Shown here: positions 2,874 to 45,600 of the stretch, piece after piece
Layout: every line of letters begins with the position of its first letter
How positions within the stretch are numbered: position 1 is the first letter of the stretch
Sequence record: PZ402301.1
DNA: 64,000 nucleotides
Direction: 5' to 3' (one strand)
Source: a phage
Position numbers and translations under genes: made by a program
The notes under the pieces: model-generated
What the model was told of the DNA's origin: nothing
Database searches by the model: none
Seen by the model: the letters and a program-made list of their open reading frames with translations, nothing else

Positions 2874-5570
2874 TCAGCCAAACAAGAAGTCTAACGAAGC
2901 TTTTTCCTCATAGTCCATACCTGCCGATTCACACATGCCCGCAAGCGGTTTAACAAACGATTTTTGGAACAAAGTTGAGTAGTCAATCCAAGACAGTACA
3001 TCAGAACGAATTTCTTTTGGAAGTTCCGTACCCGACGGCCAAGCAATGCACTTGTCACCAAATGGATTTCCCTCACGTAATGGAAGAACCATTACCTTAT
3101 TTCCATCCAAAATTGGAGCTACACCTAAACCACTAACAGCTCGACGATAAGTTAGCACCCCACGAATGTGGAACGGGCATTTAAATCCTGGCCAACCTTT
3201 ATCGTCATATTTCGCTATATCGTTCGCGGTTTTTACTTCAGCAATAACTTTATAGTCAAGTTGACGATATTCTTTCTCAAAGTTCTTGTAGTATTCTTGG
3301 ACAGACTCTTCGCCTTCCTGAAGAATACGACGAATACTTTCTTCGAGAGCTTCTTGTACTGCTTTTGGTGTTGAACTCTGCTGAGTTTCCATACCCATGA
3401 TTTTTAGATGCGGTTCAGCAAATCGTTTATCTTCCATATCATAAACGTTCAGAGCATAACGTTTTTTCGCTTTCCAAAATCCACCAACACCCTTTGAACC
3501 AAGTGGAGGGCAAGAAATAGCTTCACGGTCCATATGCATCAGATGCTCGCGGTTATTCATATAATCACATAACTCACGATATGCAACATCAATCATAGGT
3601 TCCATCTTTTTCTTACCAAACTGATTCATAAATTCAACTAAATCATTTTGTTCTTTAAAGCGGTCAAGACCTACTTTTTCAATAACTTTATCTACACAAA
3701 CATATACCGAATCAGTATCACCCGCTGCGATGAAATCTTCACCATCAGTTCCACACACTTTATTCAGATATTCATTAATTTTACGAGCAATCCACTGAAT
3801 ACCAACTTGACCAAAAATTGTGATAGCAGTAGCATTTCGCAAATCATAATAGCGGAAATGAATATTACCAAGAGCACCATAAAGACTGTTGATAAGAATT
3901 TTACGGTTCAGCTGATTTGTGTTAGCAAGTGTAGCTGCTTTTTCACATTCTTCGATCAGACTATTAAGAACAGATTCAGTGTAATTCGATAATTCGTTTA
4001 AGAAATCATCATTGAATTTAACATATCGTTCAACTTCTGGTTTAGTTGAACAAGACCCTGCACCTTTCATAATAATCTTTTTAATAGCTTCGGCATTCAT
4101 TTCTTCAGCGAACATTTTCTTTTTCCAATCTTTACGTTGGAAAAATACTTTAGCGATTTCCTTTGGAATGATACCTTCTTGATGCTTATCATACATCCAT
4201 CCATTAGGAGAACAAGAATATTCATCACTTGGCTTAGGAGCTGTTCCTGCGATATATTCATGAATTGGATGAACTTTAAACTGCCCACGAATAGTCTCAG
4301 GACTAATGTTAACCTGACGAATAATGCTAGGATACAGAGACGTCAAGTCAAAACTCATAATGTATCGACGAGCAATCGGTTTAGGTTCAAATACAAATGC
4401 ACCTGGAAAACTCTGTTTAACGTGCGAACCTTGTTGAGGAATAACCTTATGTTCGCCTTTCAGTGAGTTAAAAATAATAGCGTCCCAAGTTTTAATAGGA
4501 CTCATTACACCAGAAAAAGGCATTTTAGCGTAATAAGACATACTTAAAACTAGATCAATAAACCCACGAATTTTATCAATTGCTTGAACTGATTCTACGT
4601 CAATGATGTTATAACTAATGTATCGTTGATGATTAGTCTCACGAAGTTTATTAATAGGACCATCGTACGGCAATTTACCTTTTTTGGTTTCGTGCTGAGC
4701 AACTGATTCCAAAGAGAATGATGGCAAATTAGTAAATGCGAATTTTTTGTACAAATCTAAATAATCAAGAATAGATACGCCATCAATAGAATAAATTTCT
4801 TTGCTACCGTACATATTTTGAATTAGTTTAGATTTTACTCGACCGATTGGAGAGAAGCGTTTCATACTACGTTCACCGAGAACCATTTTAACACGATTCA
4901 TGATATACGGAACGTCAAATCCCTCAATATTCCAACCGGTAAAAATAGCAGGTCGTTTCTGTTCCCAGAGATTAATATATTCCATGAGCATATCGCGCTC
5001 ATTATCAAATGGCATATAAATTACTCGGTCAAGAATTTCTTGAGGAACTTCATCACCACCTTCACAGTCAAGCTTAGCAGCTAACTTTGCATCCCATTTT
5101 GATACTGAACCGTACATTGAATTCAACAAATCAAAGACGTAAAAACGGTCGTCAATTGAATCATAATGAGTGATAGCATCAATTTCATATTCTGCTTTCA
5201 TTGGGTCAGGAAATTTATCACCAGTAACCTCAATGTCACAGTTAGCTACACGAACAAATTTTCGGTCATAAACAATTTCTGAACCATATGTATCACTGAT
5301 ATAAGCGAGTTTAAAATCGTTCATACCAAGAGCTTCGAGACCGATGTCTTCCATTCGCTTCATCCAGTCTCGTGCATCTTTCATTGATGGAAATTTTTGA
5401 GGAGCGCAATTTTTACCGTAAATGTCTTTGTACTTTGACTCTTCCTTACAATGCCTAAACATAGTCGGAAGATATTCTACTTCACGAGTACGTTCCTTTC
5501 CGTTTTCATCAATATAACGCTCAACAATATTATTTCCGACTGTTTCGATAGAGATATAAAATTCTTTCAT
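2874..5570 (-). CDS. 43: DNA polymerase (family B) with 3'-5' exonuclease
   Basis: 898 aa, MKEFYISIETVGNNIVERYIDENGKERTREVEY... matches T4 gp43 sequence and length. Confidence 0.97.
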   Translation of the reverse strand: MKEFYISIETVGNNIVERYIDENGKERTREVEYLPTMFRHCKEESKYKDIYGKNCAPQKFPSMKDARDWMKRMEDIGLEALGMNDFKLAYISDTYGSEIVYDRKFVRVANCDIEVTGDKFPDPMKAEYEIDAITHYDSIDDRFYVFDLLNSMYGSVSKWDAKLAAKLDCEGGDEVPQEILDRVIYMPFDNERDMLMEYINLWEQKRPAIFTGWNIEGFDVPYIMNRVKMVLGERSMKRFSPIGRVKSKLIQNMYGSKEIYSIDGVSILDYLDLYKKFAFTNLPSFSLESVAQHETKKGKLPYDGPINKLRETNHQRYISYNIIDVESVQAIDKIRGFIDLVLSMSYYAKMPFSGVMSPIKTWDAIIFNSLKGEHKVIPQQGSHVKQSFPGAFVFEPKPIARRYIMSFDLTSLYPSIIRQVNISPETIRGQFKVHPIHEYIAGTAPKPSDEYSCSPNGWMYDKHQEGIIPKEIAKVFFQRKDWKKKMFAEEMNAEAIKKIIMKGAGSCSTKPEVERYVKFNDDFLNELSNYTESVLNSLIEECEKAATLANTNQLNRKILINSLYGALGNIHFRYYDLRNATAITIFGQVGIQWIARKINEYLNKVCGTDGEDFIAAGDTDSVYVCVDKVIEKVGLDRFKEQNDLVEFMNQFGKKKMEPMIDVAYRELCDYMNNREHLMHMDREAISCPPLGSKGVGGFWKAKKRYALNVYDMEDKRFAEPHLKIMGMETQQSSTPKAVQEALEESIRRILQEGEESVQEYYKNFEKEYRQLDYKVIAEVKTANDIAKYDDKGWPGFKCPFHIRGVLTYRRAVSGLGVAPILDGNKVMVLPLREGNPFGDKCIAWPSGTELPKEIRSDVLSWIDYSTLFQKSFVKPLAGMCESAGMDYEEKASLDFLFG

Positions 5571-40444: not shown

Positions 40445-41016
<572 letters not shown>

Positions 41017-41472
41017 TTAAAAGAGACTGTTCATTATTCGGTAAAGTGAAGGACCCATCACATATTGCCACTGAGTACGAGGAATAAGAGCAAAAGCATC
41101 CATCTCTGGAATCATAACACCATCTTTATTTTCAAAATAAGACTCGCAATGGCAATTTCTAAACATCTCATGCTCTACTGGAATCGTATAATAAAATAAC
41201 TGTAAGTCTTTATTACTAGAATATTTAAATACGCCTAGGTCTTCTAGAAGGTCTGGATTATAATTGCTAAAACCAGTCTCTTCTAAACATTCTCTTCGTG
41301 CTGCATCTAGTGCGCTTAAATCAGAACTTTCTACACGACCCTTTGGAATATCCCAGCGATGGGCCATCATTCCAGGCTTACGAGAACCAGTAACCCGTCC
41401 CATGAATAAATCTTTATCTTCTGTCATAAAGATAATACCAGCTGATAATGTTTTCATTTTAATTTCCTGCAT
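41017..41472 (-). CDS. nudE: Nudix hydrolase
   Basis: 151 aa; Nudix box GRVESSDLSALDAARRECLEETGF. Confidence 0.85.
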   Translation of the reverse strand: MQEIKMKTLSAGIIFMTEDKDLFMGRVTGSRKPGMMAHRWDIPKGRVESSDLSALDAARRECLEETGFSNYNPDLLEDLGVFKYSSNKDLQLFYYTIPVEHEMFRNCHCESYFENKDGVMIPEMDAFALIPRTQWQYVMGPSLYRIMNSLF

Positions 41473-41942
41473 TCAGTGATAAAGTTATTTAAATTTTGAG
41501 TATATTTCTTTTCATCAAAAATCTTTTGTTGTCTGCGTAGCCGCCATGGCATTTCAATGAACGTGTACCATATCCCAGATAATATTGCTGCTGTAAAAAT
41601 ATTAACAAGTATGGTTAAAAGAATCCAATCTCCTATTCTGTCCATTGGATTTTTTATAAAAAAGTAAAATACGAATGATGTCACAGGAAGACTAATAATA
41701 TACCACAGAATCATAATTTTATCTGTGAACCAATCAGCGCTCGTTAACTTAGCGCGACCATTATGAATACACACGAATTTATCGTCTGTTATAGTAGATG
41801 GCTTAACTGGTTGATATCCCATTCTAAACTCCCTAATCAACAAATTTTTCATATCTTCGGAACAGCCATTCCAATCAACTCTATCAACTGGAATGCCATC
41901 ATCCCCATCATCTAAATCATACCAGCGAGTTTTTAAAATCAT
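41454..41942 (-). CDS. Small membrane protein, e.x paralog family (C-terminus ...FITECRKLK)
   Basis: 162 aa; two TM helices then basic tail; stop overlaps nudE start. Confidence 0.5.
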   Translation of the reverse strand: MILKTRWYDLDDGDDGIPVDRVDWNGCSEDMKNLLIREFRMGYQPVKPSTITDDKFVCIHNGRAKLTSADWFTDKIMILWYIISLPVTSFVFYFFIKNPMDRIGDWILLTILVNIFTAAILSGIWYTFIEMPWRLRRQQKIFDEKKYTQNLNNFITECRKLK

Positions 41943-42301
41943 TTAATTTTCCTACAATCACTCACAAACTCTTTCATTGATTCATTTTCAATATAAGACA
42001 TGTAGTTATTATATTCTTTTAATTGTATTTTGTAATCCTTTTTTCTTTGCCAATTTATTTTAAAATTATCATAATGAAAATATAGCATGGTGCCAAAGAA
42101 TGAAAATAATGAAATCGCTATAGTAAAACGAAGTTCACTCCAAACCTCTGTTATAATTACTGTGCCGTCGATGTTTAAAATAAAACAGTCAATTAGCAAT
42201 CCAATAAGACTACCCGCAAGAGCTGCAAATACTGACACAGCAAGAATTAATAGTGCCTCGGGAAACGAATATTTGACTTTATTTAGTTTTGGCTTTTGCA
42301 T
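41939..42301 (-). CDS. Small 2-TM membrane protein, e.x paralog family (C-terminus ...FVSDCRKIK)
   Basis: 120 aa; overlaps neighbours at both ends. Confidence 0.5.
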   Translation of the reverse strand: MQKPKLNKVKYSFPEALLILAVSVFAALAGSLIGLLIDCFILNIDGTVIITEVWSELRFTIAISLFSFFGTMLYFHYDNFKINWQRKKDYKIQLKEYNNYMSYIENESMKEFVSDCRKIK

Positions 42302-42675
42302 CGTGATTCCTTAACAAATTTCATAATTTCGTTAAATTCATACGCAGCAAGTTTAAGCTGGTGTTCCTTTTTAATCTTTTTACACTGAGCTTTCCATTCG
42401 CGTACACGTTTACGATAATGTCTTCCTTGATACCAGTATCCTACCCAATTTACAGGTACTAATAAAAGCGGAATTATTAATGGAAGAATTAGTGTTGCTC
42501 CAAATATTACACCGGATTCAATATCAGTCATAACGTCTATAACCATTCCAGCAATTAGCAGAATCACAAATGATACAGCTACCACAGGACCCATTAATAC
42601 ATCGGTAGAAATTATCTGGCGCTTTAGTTCATACTTCACAGGTTTACTTGGAAGGTATAGTGATGGCTTTGACAT
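42283..42675 (-). CDS. Small 2-TM membrane protein, e.x paralog family (C-terminus ...FVKESRCKSQN)
   Basis: Track ORF 42283..42696; start taken at MSKPSLY. Confidence 0.5.
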   Translation of the reverse strand: MSKPSLYLPSKPVKYELKRQIISTDVLMGPVVAVSFVILLIAGMVIDVMTDIESGVIFGATLILPLIIPLLLVPVNWVGYWYQGRHYRKRVREWKAQCKKIKKEHQLKLAAYEFNEIMKFVKESRCKSQN

Positions 42676-43258
42676 ATTCTCTACATTCCTTAACAAATTT
42701 TTCTAATAATAAATCGCTTTCAAAACTAGGATTTTCCACGAATTTATCAAAAAGATCATCAACAATATTCAAGATATTCCTTTTACTAAGAATACGTTTA
42801 TTTTCATGTTTCGTTTCAGAATCAACTATAAGAGTAAAGAAATATTTCTTTCCCTGAAATTTTACTGTAGTATCAATATAGAATAAATTTGACTTTTGTA
42901 AGTTACGTTTAAACCATGCGTCACTTAAACTATAAACACCGAGATAATCAAAATCGTCGTTTAAATAACAAACTGTCCATTCAGGAGAAATGAAATCAGT
43001 AAATTCAACATCAAAATCACACGTCAATGAATGAATTGATTCAATACTGTTAATAAGTATTCCAGGGCGTATTAAAGACTTTTTACCTCTAGAAAATCTT
43101 CCAGAAAGACTTTCATCAGTTTCATATGAAGACCCCCAATAGTAATTACGTCCTTCTGCCATACGTTTAAGAGCATTTAGTAATTGGTCTGGAACATCAA
43201 CATGTCTTTGGAACTCTTCAAACATTGAATTGAAATCATTTTGCATTTTCATTTTCAT
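42644..43258 (-). CDS. Hypothetical protein (C-terminus ...KFVKECREYVKAITIPSK)
   Basis: 204 aa; three in-frame ATGs at start (MKMKM). Confidence 0.5.
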   Translation of the reverse strand: MKMKMQNDFNSMFEEFQRHVDVPDQLLNALKRMAEGRNYYWGSSYETDESLSGRFSRGKKSLIRPGILINSIESIHSLTCDFDVEFTDFISPEWTVCYLNDDFDYLGVYSLSDAWFKRNLQKSNLFYIDTTVKFQGKKYFFTLIVDSETKHENKRILSKRNILNIVDDLFDKFVENPSFESDLLLEKFVKECREYVKAITIPSK

Positions 43259-43277
43259 TCCTATTTACTCCAAGTAT

Positions 43278-43295
43278 AAGGGGCCGAAGCCCCTT
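43278..43295 (-). terminator. GC-rich stem-loop
   Basis: aaggggccgaagcccctt. Confidence 0.5.
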
Positions 43296-43299
43296 ATCA

Positions 43300-43893
43300 T
43301 TATTTCAGAGAATTAATGTATTCCTGAACATCGGCAGAGGTAGTTTCAACCCCGGAAATATTACCGTTAAAGGTTTCAACTCGAGCAAGAGTATCTTCAA
43401 TATCAACCTTAGTTAGCGCTGCGATTTCAACTACATCATCAGCAGTACTAATTCCAAGGGCATTTGCCGCACGAGTTTCACGGATATATTCCAATTTAAC
43501 TGCAAGTTCTTGACGAGCATCATCTAACTCAACTACTTTCTTGGCGATTTCAATTCGCATTTCAGCATAACCATCAGCTTTAGTAGTCAACTGCTCAGCT
43601 GTTCGACGATATAGTAAACCGAGCTTAGCATGCATTGTTACATCTTGACCTTCGGAAAGAAGTTTGCGAATTTCACGCTCTTTTGATTCGGCTTGTCGAT
43701 TCTTTTCGATAACAAGTTCACGAATACGTTTTTCTTCATTAATAGATTTAACAGAAGCAGTTTTTAGGTCTTTAATCTTATCAAGTAATTTTGCTGCTGC
43801 AGCAGTATACTGTTCTTCAACAGATAGATTTTTAGCCATAGCAGAACCAAGTTTAGTGCGAATAAACTCAACAATTTTCTTCAGTGTGTTCAT
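43300..43893 (-). CDS. Hypothetical coiled-coil protein (PspA/IM30-like composition)
   Basis: 197 aa, predicted largely alpha-helical; SD AAGGAA. Confidence 0.5.
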
Positions 43894-45016: not shown

Positions 45017-45046
45017 AAAAAGCCCCAACCTTTCGGTCGGGGCTAA
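45017..45046. repeat. 30-bp direct repeat copy A (hairpin-forming) downstream of the IP-like gene
   Basis: aaaaagccccaacctttcggtcggggctaa, identical to 45571-45600. Confidence 0.9.
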
Positions 45047-45570: not shown

Positions 45571-45600
45571 AAAAAGCCCCAACCTTTCGGTCGGGGCTAA
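45571..45600. repeat. 30-bp direct repeat copy B (hairpin-forming) upstream of the IP-like gene
   Basis: aaaaagccccaacctttcggtcggggctaa, identical to 45017-45046. Confidence 0.9.

Follow-up and report, generated by a model that had tools for sequence, protein, structure and literature searches.

A short C-terminal peptide motif in the e.2–e.5 gene run of a T4-like phage, with codons that also serve as Shine-Dalgarno sequences

The window analyzed here is a 64 kb stretch of sequence record PZ402301.1, and all positions are counted on this whole stretch. It stems from a Tequatrovirus, i.e., a T4-like phage, with 97% nucleotide identity to Tequatroviruses. The window matches T4 e.2–e.6 gene for gene, and the gene order e.6 – e.5 – e.4 – e.3 – e.2 – nudE – e is conserved with T4. 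Four proteins were assigned to the T4 e.2, e.3, e.4 and e.5 groups with PHROG E-values between 1e-58 and 1e-108, in agreement with tblastn and HMMER. Their genes and all other features described below lie on the minus strand. They are direct orthologues of T4 e.2–e.5 (NC_000866, T4p125–T4p128), alike in order, overlaps and lengths, with identities to T4 of 83% (e.3), 85% (e.4) and 97% (e.5). The T4 reference record lists e.2 with only 102 aa because of a −1/+1 indel pair, whereas the window contains the intact 162-aa form common to most relatives. T4 e.2–e.5 are annotated without a function and without a shared motif, and literature searches with gene names, motif strings and the Pfam accession returned nothing on e.2–e.5. 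The e.2–e.6 block is one of many T4 early gene groups without known function, although T4 is among the viruses studied best. A Pfam scan of six proteins from this region, against a set that does not include PF26873, PF26876 and PF26896 of the precomputed table, gave a single match, NUDIX, in nudE.

The block begins with e.6 (43300–43893), the conserved upstream neighbour of e.5, which is predicted to encode a PspA/Vipp1-like helical-hairpin protein (AF2 model, Foldseek). Between e.6 and e.5 lies a GC-rich hairpin with a UUCG loop (43276–43297). It was the only strong hairpin in a promoter and terminator scan, where promoter-like sites were at background level. The e.5 orthologue (42644–43258; PHROG 2607 at 2e-108, precomputed PF26876) encodes a 204-aa protein without a transmembrane (TM) segment in Kyte-Doolittle hydropathy analysis, presumably soluble. 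Its AF2 model is of moderate quality (mean pLDDT 62.6) and contains a C-terminal helix (residues 183–198) that spans the tail motif FVKECR (42680–42697); the protein ends in EKFVKECREYVKAITIPSK. The tail agrees with the initial annotation, which had noted a similar ending on the 204-aa protein, and we recovered it in a strict motif scan of the six-frame translation. Foldseek searches of the e.5 model against the PDB gave nothing meaningful (TM-score about 0.15); the top matches, small alarmone synthetases with E about 0.01, were regarded as noise. A single-sequence search of e.5 against the PDB also returned nothing.

Downstream of e.5 follow e.4 (42283–42675, 130 aa; PHROG 2604, PF26873), e.3 (41939–42301, 120 aa; PHROG 2330) and e.2 (41454–41942, 162 aa; PHROG 2203, 'membrane protein'). 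The run ends in overlap with nudE (41017–41472), a Nudix hydrolase according to Pfam (NUDIX, 9.5e-14) and T4 annotation. For e.4 we used the ATG start, as annotated in T4; an open reading frame from a TTG codon that reaches 42696 is a mechanical extension. The initial annotation had described three consecutive genes for proteins with two TM helices and basic tails. Open reading frames and basic tails were confirmed, and hydropathy analysis yielded two hydrophobic segments each in e.4 (about residues 27–49 and 55–77), e.3 (about 16–42 and 58–76) and e.2 (about 76–96 and 104–129), yet the second segment of e.3 stayed below the window threshold of 1.6 and was assigned by eye. In e.2 the TM segments are preceded by an acidic, presumably soluble N-terminal domain of about 75 aa. 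Lysine and arginine are enriched at both termini of e.3 and e.4 and in the C-terminal tail of e.2. This charge distribution is consistent with N-in/C-in hairpins that follow the positive-inside rule, with cytoplasmic basic C-terminal tails, in all three proteins. The second TM segment is separated from the tail motif by 16–35 aa. Amphipathicity of the tails was marginally above that of shuffled controls (p 0.07–0.15).

The strict motif F[VI].[ED]C[RK] occurred three times in the six-frame translation of the 64 kb window, exclusively at the ends of e.5, e.3 and e.2, compared with a mean of 0.18 and a maximum of one in the shuffled window. Another 79 kb of T4 (1–50 kb and 140–169 kb) contained no further copy. 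The e.3 protein ends in KEFVSDCRKIK (motif FVSDCR, 41951–41968), e.2 in NNFITECRKLK (FITECR, 41466–41483) and a Dhakavirus e.2 homologue in SFIKECRK. A tail of this kind had been ascribed to all three TM proteins, which holds for e.2 and e.3 but not for e.4, whose end KFVKESRCKSQN lacks the motif proper. The e.4 protein instead has two degenerate copies, FVKESRC at its terminus (42298–42318) and an internal WKAQCK (42379–42396) within REWKAQCKKIK (residues 93–103). Pairwise hhalign comparisons of the tails matched e.3 with e.2 (E 1.7e-7), e.2 with e.5 (1.2e-6), e.3 with e.5 (1e-5) and e.3 with the terminal copy of e.4 (3e-4). Across three genera, 14 residues of e.3 are invariant, among them F112 and C116. 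In e.4, W94 and C98 of the internal copy are invariant across genera, and F120, K122, E123 and R125 are invariant as well.

The motif extends well beyond the Tequatroviruses. In all T4-like genera that were sampled, ranging from phages of Klebsiella to those of Aeromonas, the gene following e.6 encodes it, even where the protein body is barely recognisable: the tails read FIMECRE in RB69, FIAECRE in Gaprivervirus and Dhakavirus, FIKHCRE in Klebsiella phages, FINYCRG in Karamvirus and FVDYCRR in Aeromonas phages. In RB43, one gene intervenes between e.6 and the gene with the motif (FIHSCKK). Further proteins with two TM segments carry it in other genera, i.e., RB69ORF133c and Karamvirus gp112, and in some members the cysteine is replaced (FLKEMRK at the end of a Klebsiella e.4-like protein, FIKEVRN at that of Gaprivervirus e.4). 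One short motif at the protein level thereby joins four T4 genes to more than 20 in related genera. Some of the motif proteins are soluble and a Dhakavirus e.2-like protein with the motif is encoded about 3 kb from the e.6 cluster of that phage, therefore the motif may serve a purpose other than membrane anchoring.

We compiled 22 motif instances from nine phages. Phenylalanine was encoded by both of its codons (ttt/ttc), cysteine likewise (tgt/tgc) and arginine by all six, from the AGR and CGN families. The next start codon was located between −44 and +43 nt relative to the stop codon. Moreover, e.5 of RB69 and of Gaprivervirus retains F-I-x-E-C-R-E-Y without an AAGGA sequence. Codon variety, variable spacing and AAGGA-less copies together argue that the similarity is maintained at the peptide level, i.e., that selection acting on the protein, not on the DNA, keeps the tail motif.

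A further point of the initial annotation was that the genes form a tandem family. Accordingly, the C-terminal half of e.2, e.3, e.4, RB69ORF133c and others might descend from one ancestor with two TM segments and tail, the bodies having diverged beyond recognition and the e.5 tail being secondary. For e.3 and e.4, the hhalign alignment was collinear over 112 columns (E about 1e-6, i.e., 1.4e-6), and both proteins share an N-terminal M-x-[KR]-P-x-L; e.3 and e.2 aligned over 91 columns (E 6e-6). BLASTP linked RB69 e.4 to RZ gp163 (0.001), the C-terminal part of Dhakavirus e.2 to RZ gp163 (9e-6) and RB69 133c to the C-terminal part of T4-type e.2 (3e-4), and a natural in-frame hybrid of an e.4 N-terminus with an e.2 C-terminus exists (P0145). 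However, these cross-family BLASTP scores are dominated by the tails. With the tails removed, only e.3 and e.4 exceeded the reversed control, and weakly so (score 22.5, E 0.0017, compared with 12.9, E 0.13), whereas the TM part of e.2 showed no detectable relation to e.3 or e.4 in body-only hhalign and remained at control level. PHROGs, too, keeps e.2, e.3, e.4 and e.5 in four separate families (2203, 2330, 2604 and 2607). An e.3 HMM searched against 1.8e9 representative proteins gave six matches, of which five are relatives of e.3 and the sixth is a long unrelated protein, and retrieved neither e.4 nor e.2; the e.3 family is tiny and has no bridge to e.4 or e.2 in this set. Moreover, it is the lineage of the soluble e.5 in which the motif is oldest and has the widest distribution. 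Full-length paralogy is hence weakly supported for the pair e.3/e.4 and for this pair only, and a single ancestor for the entire set appears doubtful to us. Because body homology is so weak, convergent acquisition of the tail is not distinguishable from descent.

The genes of the run overlap without gaps, by 32 nt at e.5/e.4 and 19 nt at e.4/e.3, with ATGA stop/start overlaps at e.3/e.2 and e.2/nudE, as the initial annotation had observed for the tails. Due to these overlaps, motif codons double as the Shine-Dalgarno sequence of the next gene, either K-E as AAGGAA or R-K as AGGAAA. In e.5, the AAG GAA codons of FVKECR precede e.4, the terminal degenerate motif of e.4 holds both the Shine-Dalgarno sequence and the ATG of e.3, and the AGG AAA that follows the motif in e.3 and e.2 serves e.2 and nudE, respectively. 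In each case, AAGGA or AGGA is found 6–11 nt ahead of the downstream ATG. The run from e.5 to e.2 and into nudE is probably translationally coupled, as judged from this arrangement. Coupled genes of T4 early operons likewise have ATGA overlaps and Shine-Dalgarno sequences inside the upstream coding sequence; here, in contrast, the dual-use codons also belong to an independently conserved peptide motif. The same codons thus provide peptide motif and ribosome-binding site, which can mislead a reading from sequence only.

A nucleotide block had been proposed to recur at every junction and to contain the start of the next gene. We found the 16-nt block AAATTTGTTAAGGAAT as an exact match at two of the four junctions, at the e.5 end (42685–42700) and the e.4 end (42306–42321), and nothing within three mismatches at the ends of e.3 or e.2. 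The block includes the AAGGA of the next gene but not its start codon, which follows 4–9 nt past the block. Both junctions share a module of roughly 35 nt, consisting of the block followed by ATGNNAAAGCCA. Local nucleotide alignment of the gene ends was significant for this pair (exceeded by 0/500 shuffles), borderline for e.3/e.2 against e.2/nudE (14/500) and at chance for all other pairs. The 35-nt module looks like a duplicated gene-end/gene-start unit, so that the proposed duplication would apply to e.5/e.4 and e.4/e.3 and not to the run in general. Such a duplicated e.5/e.4 junction would account for the extra degenerate motif at the e.4 end. RNA folding gave no significant structure for any of the four junctions (z-scores 0.08, −0.86, −1.93 and 0.76), hence there is no RNA structure to explain the conservation.

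The exact block with its similar ATGNNAAAGCCA start at two junctions, the AAGGA or AGGA 6–11 nt before each downstream ATG and the gapless overlaps could also mean that a nucleotide cassette carrying the next Shine-Dalgarno sequence and start was duplicated, the peptide likeness being a by-product of initiation signals conserved for coupled translation. As a general explanation this is largely refuted by the codon variety and by the absence of the block from the ends of e.3 and e.2. The motif also persists where the next start codon is at +14 to +43 nt from the stop codon or where the Shine-Dalgarno sequence is located elsewhere, and a Shine-Dalgarno role does not account for its conserved F, V/I and C or for the hydrophobic residue upstream of them; we consider this explanation improbable. 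Conservation at the peptide level on or beside a downstream initiation site, together with the 16–35 aa between TM2 and motif, might further suggest a regulatory nascent peptide, i.e., a tail that, like SecM or MifM, stalls or slows the ribosome over the next initiation region until hairpin insertion relieves it, and thereby tunes expression of the downstream gene. But the motif is found on soluble proteins and without gene overlap, the junction folds (z 0.76 to −1.93) show no significant mRNA hairpin that would hide the downstream Shine-Dalgarno sequence, and stalling on the motif would place the ribosome over this sequence rather than free it. To our knowledge, the motif resembles no known arrest sequence either, which makes a nascent-peptide role very improbable. 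That short basic amphipathic tails resemble each other by chance, for which the shortness of the motif and the non-significant hydrophobic-moment test could be cited, is refuted by the motif enrichment (3 compared with 0.18 expected) with perfect positional clustering, by invariance across genera, by hhalign tail E-values down to 1e-7 against reversed and shuffled controls and by the survey of codons and instances, leaving it practically without credence.

The neighbour e.6 fixes the context of the cluster and gives the orphan genes a testable function. In Foldseek searches of its AF2 model against the PDB, the top nine matches were Vipp1, and PspA and ESCRT-III were also among the top matches; searches of the PDB with the single e.6 sequence or a profile returned nothing. 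The gene is present in 1107 phage records. As the only relevant literature match for the cluster, a genome note describes resemblance of e.6 to PspA, with an HHpred probability of 99.9% of an e.6 homologue to PspA 4WHE (PMC7862958). The structural model and this match indicate that e.6 is PspA/Vipp1-like.

In the bacterial Psp system, PspA is under the control of small membrane proteins that bind it. The phage arrangement is similar in that a PspA-like e.6 is encoded beside several small predicted inner-membrane proteins with cytoplasmic helices. It differs in that PspB and PspC have one TM helix compared with two in the phage proteins, and in that the soluble e.5 bears the same tail. Neither e.3 nor e.4 gave a Pfam match to PspB or PspC at E ≤ 0.1.

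We propose a model in which peptide-level conservation of the tail is combined with a role in recruitment. The uniting feature would be a short helix at the cytoplasmic C-terminus with the pattern hydrophobic-x-x-F-[V/I]-x-[E/D]-C-[R/K], rather than a common body: e.5 would be soluble, e.4 and e.3 small N-in/C-in two-helix hairpins of the inner membrane, and e.2 such a hairpin preceded by a soluble domain. The motif would be oldest in the e.5 lineage and have spread to, or been retained in, the hairpin proteins, with e.3 and e.4 probably old tandem paralogues and the terminal degenerate copy of e.4 derived from the duplicated e.5/e.4 junction. The tail would act in docking or oligomerisation, as a helix linking soluble e.5 and the hairpins to a common cytoplasmic partner, most plausibly the adjacent PspA/Vipp1-like e.6, which is a guess from synteny. 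A phage Psp-like module of this kind would have the inner membrane as its target in early infection. We hold the descriptive part, i.e., gene identity, protein-level motif and dual use as Shine-Dalgarno sequence, with high confidence, and put forward docking to e.6 tentatively. Both parts taken together, we assign the model a probability of about 0.5.

A wider version seems rather unlikely to us, namely that T4-like phages own a Psp-like membrane-maintenance module in which e.6, as a member of the PspA/ESCRT-III superfamily, is recruited or regulated via one helix at the C-terminus, hydrophobic-x-x-F-[VI]-x-x-C-[RK], that is shared by fast-evolving clients (e.5, e.4, e.3, e.2 and the members from other genera). 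On this view, the motif would act as a portable 'address tag' that was passed between unrelated bodies. If the Psp-like reading is true, it would explain how inner-membrane integrity or proton-motive force is handled in early infection by a lytic phage.

We also compared the proteins with Imm and Sp, which act in superinfection exclusion of T4. Both resemble e.2–e.4 as small early proteins of the membrane or periplasm, and Imm also has two hydrophobic helices, but the tail motif is absent from both. Sequence similarity, as a superinfection exclusion role might suggest, was almost absent in BLASTP: every comparison that involved Imm or a T4-type protein gave E ≥ 0.2, and the lowest value was E 0.003 over 27 aa for the Klebsiella e.4-like protein against Sp. 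A scan of the window for a 'WVSSSxxC' family found nothing.

Finally, the 16-nt block resembles the consensus of the translational repressor RegA, AAAAUUGUUAUGUAA, which we note as a lead only. A joint metal-binding site formed by the conserved cysteines of the four tails is conceivable; the cysteine count differs between genera. A stable hairpin separates e.6 from e.5, and the two genes may be regulated separately.

The window is from a Tequatrovirus, and its bases 41000–43300 are 95–97% identical to many T4-like coliphages in nucleotide comparison. Each gene of the locus has its T4 counterpart, and all of them lie on the minus strand: denV, e (lysozyme), nudE, e.2, e.3, e.4, e.5 and e.6. The genes of interest, i.e., e.2 (41454–41942, 162 aa), e.3 (41939–42301, 120 aa), e.4 (42283–42675, 130 aa from the ATG that is also its start in T4) and e.5 (42644–43258, 204 aa), are T4 open reading frames annotated long ago and not new genes. 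They matched four different PHROGs families (E values 1e-58 to 1e-108), three labelled as of unknown function and the fourth, phrog_2203 (e.2), only as 'membrane protein'. In the precomputed Pfam table, PF26873 corresponds to e.4 and PF26876 to e.5. Homologues of e.3, e.4 and e.6 are called 'sulfurtransferase', 'DNA primase', 'host specificity protein', 'head outer capsid protein' or 'phosphoserine phosphatase' in several public records; our searches gave no support for any of these functional names.

Hydropathy analysis revealed two hydrophobic stretches each in e.2, e.3 and e.4 and no such stretch in e.5, in line with the initial annotation of three two-transmembrane (2-TM) proteins, although the second stretch of e.3 lies under the 1.6 window threshold and was called by eye. 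Lysine and arginine are enriched in the C-terminal tails of all three proteins and in the N-termini of e.3 and e.4, which fits hairpins with a predicted N-in/C-in topology and cytoplasmic tails. The tails of e.2 (NNFITECRKLK), e.3 (KEFVSDCRKIK) and e.5 (EKFVKECREYVKAITIPSK) end in a common motif. When the whole window was translated in six frames, the strict form of this motif, F[VI].[ED]C[RK], appeared three times, always at these gene ends (shuffled sequences: mean 0.18, maximum 1); a further 79 kb of T4 contained none. The motif or a similar ending had been assigned to every gene end; e.4, however, terminates in KFVKESRCKSQN and carries a separate internal copy, REWKAQCKKIK, which BLASTP aligned to the e.3 and e.2 tails and whose W94 and C98 stay unchanged from T4 through to Gaprivervirus.

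We then consider whether the tail is kept as DNA or as peptide. A 16-nt block, AAATTTGTTAAGGAAT, said to recur at each junction of gene end and next gene start, is exact at the ends of e.5 (42685–42700) and e.4 (42306–42321), but nothing within three mismatches of it was found at the e.3/e.2 and e.2/nudE junctions. Nor does it contain the next start: it holds the Shine-Dalgarno sequence AAGGA, and the start codons follow 6–11 nt past this AAGGA. When the four gene ends were aligned locally, only the pair e.5/e.4 and e.4/e.3 was significant (0/500 shuffles); e.3/e.2 against e.2/nudE was borderline (14/500) and the remaining pairs were at chance level. The opening codons of e.4 (ATG TCA AAG CCA) and e.3 (ATG CAA AAG CCA) are alike. 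Thus the proposed duplication of a gene-end/gene-start module narrows to two junctions, where about 35 nt look duplicated; this neatly accounts for the extra, degenerate FVKE tail of e.4 behind its own W-x-x-x-C motif.

For comparison we used the window and eight further phages: RB69 (Mosigvirus), vB_EcoM_RZ (Gaprivervirus), LHE83 and IME281 (Dhakavirus), Klebsiella phage kv_tblp8, Enterobacter phage myPSH1140 (Karamvirus), Aeromonas phage Riv-10 and RB43. The pattern [FWY][VIL]xx[CM][RK] was found at 22 ORF ends in these nine phages, with Phe encoded by ttt or ttc, Cys by tgt or tgc and Arg by aga, agg, cgt, cga, cgc or cgg. Relative to the stop, the position of the next start ranges from −44 to +43 nt. 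AAGGA is missing from RB69 e.5 (FIMECREY) and Gaprivervirus gp165 (FIAECREY), which still have the peptide, and RNA folds of the four junctions were unremarkable (z-scores 0.08, −0.86, −1.93 and 0.76). Codon usage, spacing, AAGGA-free copies and folds together argue that the motif is selected as a peptide, its role as a ribosome-binding site being secondary.

Profile-profile alignment with hhalign gave a collinear match of e.3 and e.4 over 112 columns (E 1.4e-6) and of e.3 and e.2 over 91 columns (E 6e-6). Column-shuffled and reversed controls scored far lower in both cases, and most of the signal came from the tail. Tails alone matched for e.3 and e.2 (E 1.7e-7), e.2 and e.5 (E 1.2e-6) and e.3 and e.5 (E 1e-5). 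With bodies alone, i.e., without the tails, e.3/e.4 scored 22.5 against 12.9 for the reversed control, whereas e.2 against e.3 or e.4 stayed at control level. Among 1.8 billion representative proteins the e.3 profile had six matches, none of them e.4 or e.2; e.3 and e.4 share an N-terminal M-x-[KR]-P-x-L. Of the supposed tandem family, e.3 and e.4 are probably old paralogues, while we read e.2 as a different body, built of an acidic soluble domain and a hairpin, whose tail is homologous, and e.5 as a soluble body that is unrelated but bears the same tail. A natural in-frame hybrid, P0145, joins e.4 residues 1–31 to e.2 residues about 86–162 in Escherichia phage vB_EcoM-UFV05 and four other contigs. 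The join is a 7-nt microhomology (TCCTGTG) where TM1 begins in both genes; the fusion removes the remainder of e.4, all of e.3 and the e.2 soluble domain, and its product is once more a 2-TM protein with the motif tail.

The T4 reference e.2 is annotated with 102 aa (NC_000866, about 67474–67979, positions 2975–3480 of our locus L001; window 41440–41960). Compared with the window and most relatives, it lacks 1 nt in an A-run and gains 1 nt some 80 nt farther on, so that the frame is restored, but with a stop in between; this reflects either an error in sequencing or a pseudogene of the lab strain, and the FITECRKLK tail is still encoded. Downstream, nudE has two in-frame ATGs (MQEIKMKTL, 41457–41472). 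The T4 record starts at the first, while a Shine-Dalgarno sequence (AGGAAATTAAAATG) precedes only the second, which also makes an ATGA overlap with the e.2 stop.

The upstream neighbor e.6 is far more widespread than e.2–e.5: it was found in 1107 phage records, among them those of Klebsiella, Enterobacter and Aeromonas phages and of RB43. The gene that immediately follows e.6 carries the motif at its end in eight of the nine phages sampled, even if the body of that gene barely aligns to T4 e.5, as in Klebsiella kv_tblp8 (EEFIKHCREAVNG), an unannotated Karamvirus ORF (DFINYCRGQIAK) and Aeromonas Riv-10 (LFVDYCRRTASKK); in RB43 the motif is on the second gene, ORF268w (LEKFIHSCKK). Copy number of the hairpin (2-TM) genes varies: three in Tequatrovirus; two (e.4, e.3) in RB69 and Gaprivervirus, RB69 adding ORF133c further along; one, e.4-like and ending AFLKEMRK, in the Klebsiella phage; and none at the e.6-adjacent position in the Aeromonas phage and RB43. 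IME281 lacks e.4, and Karamvirus has no hairpin gene directly behind e.5 but gp112 (2-TM, with motif) about 2 kb downstream. The neighborhood also holds small soluble proteins with the motif in three cases: the Klebsiella phage, Dhakavirus and Karamvirus. Two myPSH1140 ORFs lack annotation in the public record (L011, about 3640–4290 and 4816–5220): the gene in the e.5 position, mentioned above (DFINYCRGQIAK), and a soluble protein, about 120 aa long, that ends with IESFIRMCRKNRL. In other genera, a distinct tandem family of small acidic soluble proteins ending G-x-WVSS(S)xxC directly follows the hairpin genes (L002 of RB69, 3357–4152; L003, 3691–4712; L009, 4522–5103; L010, 4567–5371; L011, 4299–4825); a scan of the window found none.

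A single-sequence AF2 model of e.6 (43300–43893, minus strand) is a long helical hairpin with pLDDT >90 over residues 30–130. In a Foldseek search of the PDB, Vipp1 took all nine top places, followed by CHMP1B, CdvB and PspA, the best hits thus being Vipp1, PspA and ESCRT-III; the sequence profiles run here did not reach PspA. The likeness was noted once before, in passing, in a genome announcement reporting a 99.9% HHpred match of an e.6 homologue to E. coli PspA (PMC7862958). For e.3 and e.4, Pfam searches found no similarity to PspB or PspC (no hit at E ≤ 0.1), and hence we claim no membership in these families. Fold and neighbors delineate a module in which a PspA/Vipp1-like protein is followed by a UUCG hairpin and then by overlapping genes for the proteins with the tail. 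We hold the description, i.e., gene structure, predicted topology, protein-level motif conservation, dual use of the motif as a Shine-Dalgarno sequence and synteny with a PspA-like gene, to be correct with a probability of about 0.85. The tail, helical in the AF2 model of e.5 (residues 183–198), may be a cytoplasmic docking or oligomerization helix whose partner would be e.6 or other tail-bearing proteins, and the assembly could form a phage Psp-like inner-membrane module; docking to e.6 as the mechanism is somewhat less likely than not. Our literature search found no description of the shared tail motif or of e.2–e.5 function, and we regard this as a genuine, if modest, lead on orphan genes of a model phage rather than as a new kind of system.

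From T4 to RB43, the C-terminus of e.6 is itself conserved, with the spacing of the tail motif: aromatic-aliphatic-x-x-(L instead of C)-K. Stable UUCG-tetraloop hairpins are a common type in T4 intercistronic regions, and the one between e.6 and e.5 is GC-rich (AAGGGGC-UUCG-GCCCCUU, 43276–43297, minus strand). A 24-nt terminator-like hairpin (AGCCCCGACCGAAAGGTTGGGGCT, then a T-run) occurs on the same strand in two identical copies, at 45021–45044 and 45575–45598, at a distance of 554 nt.
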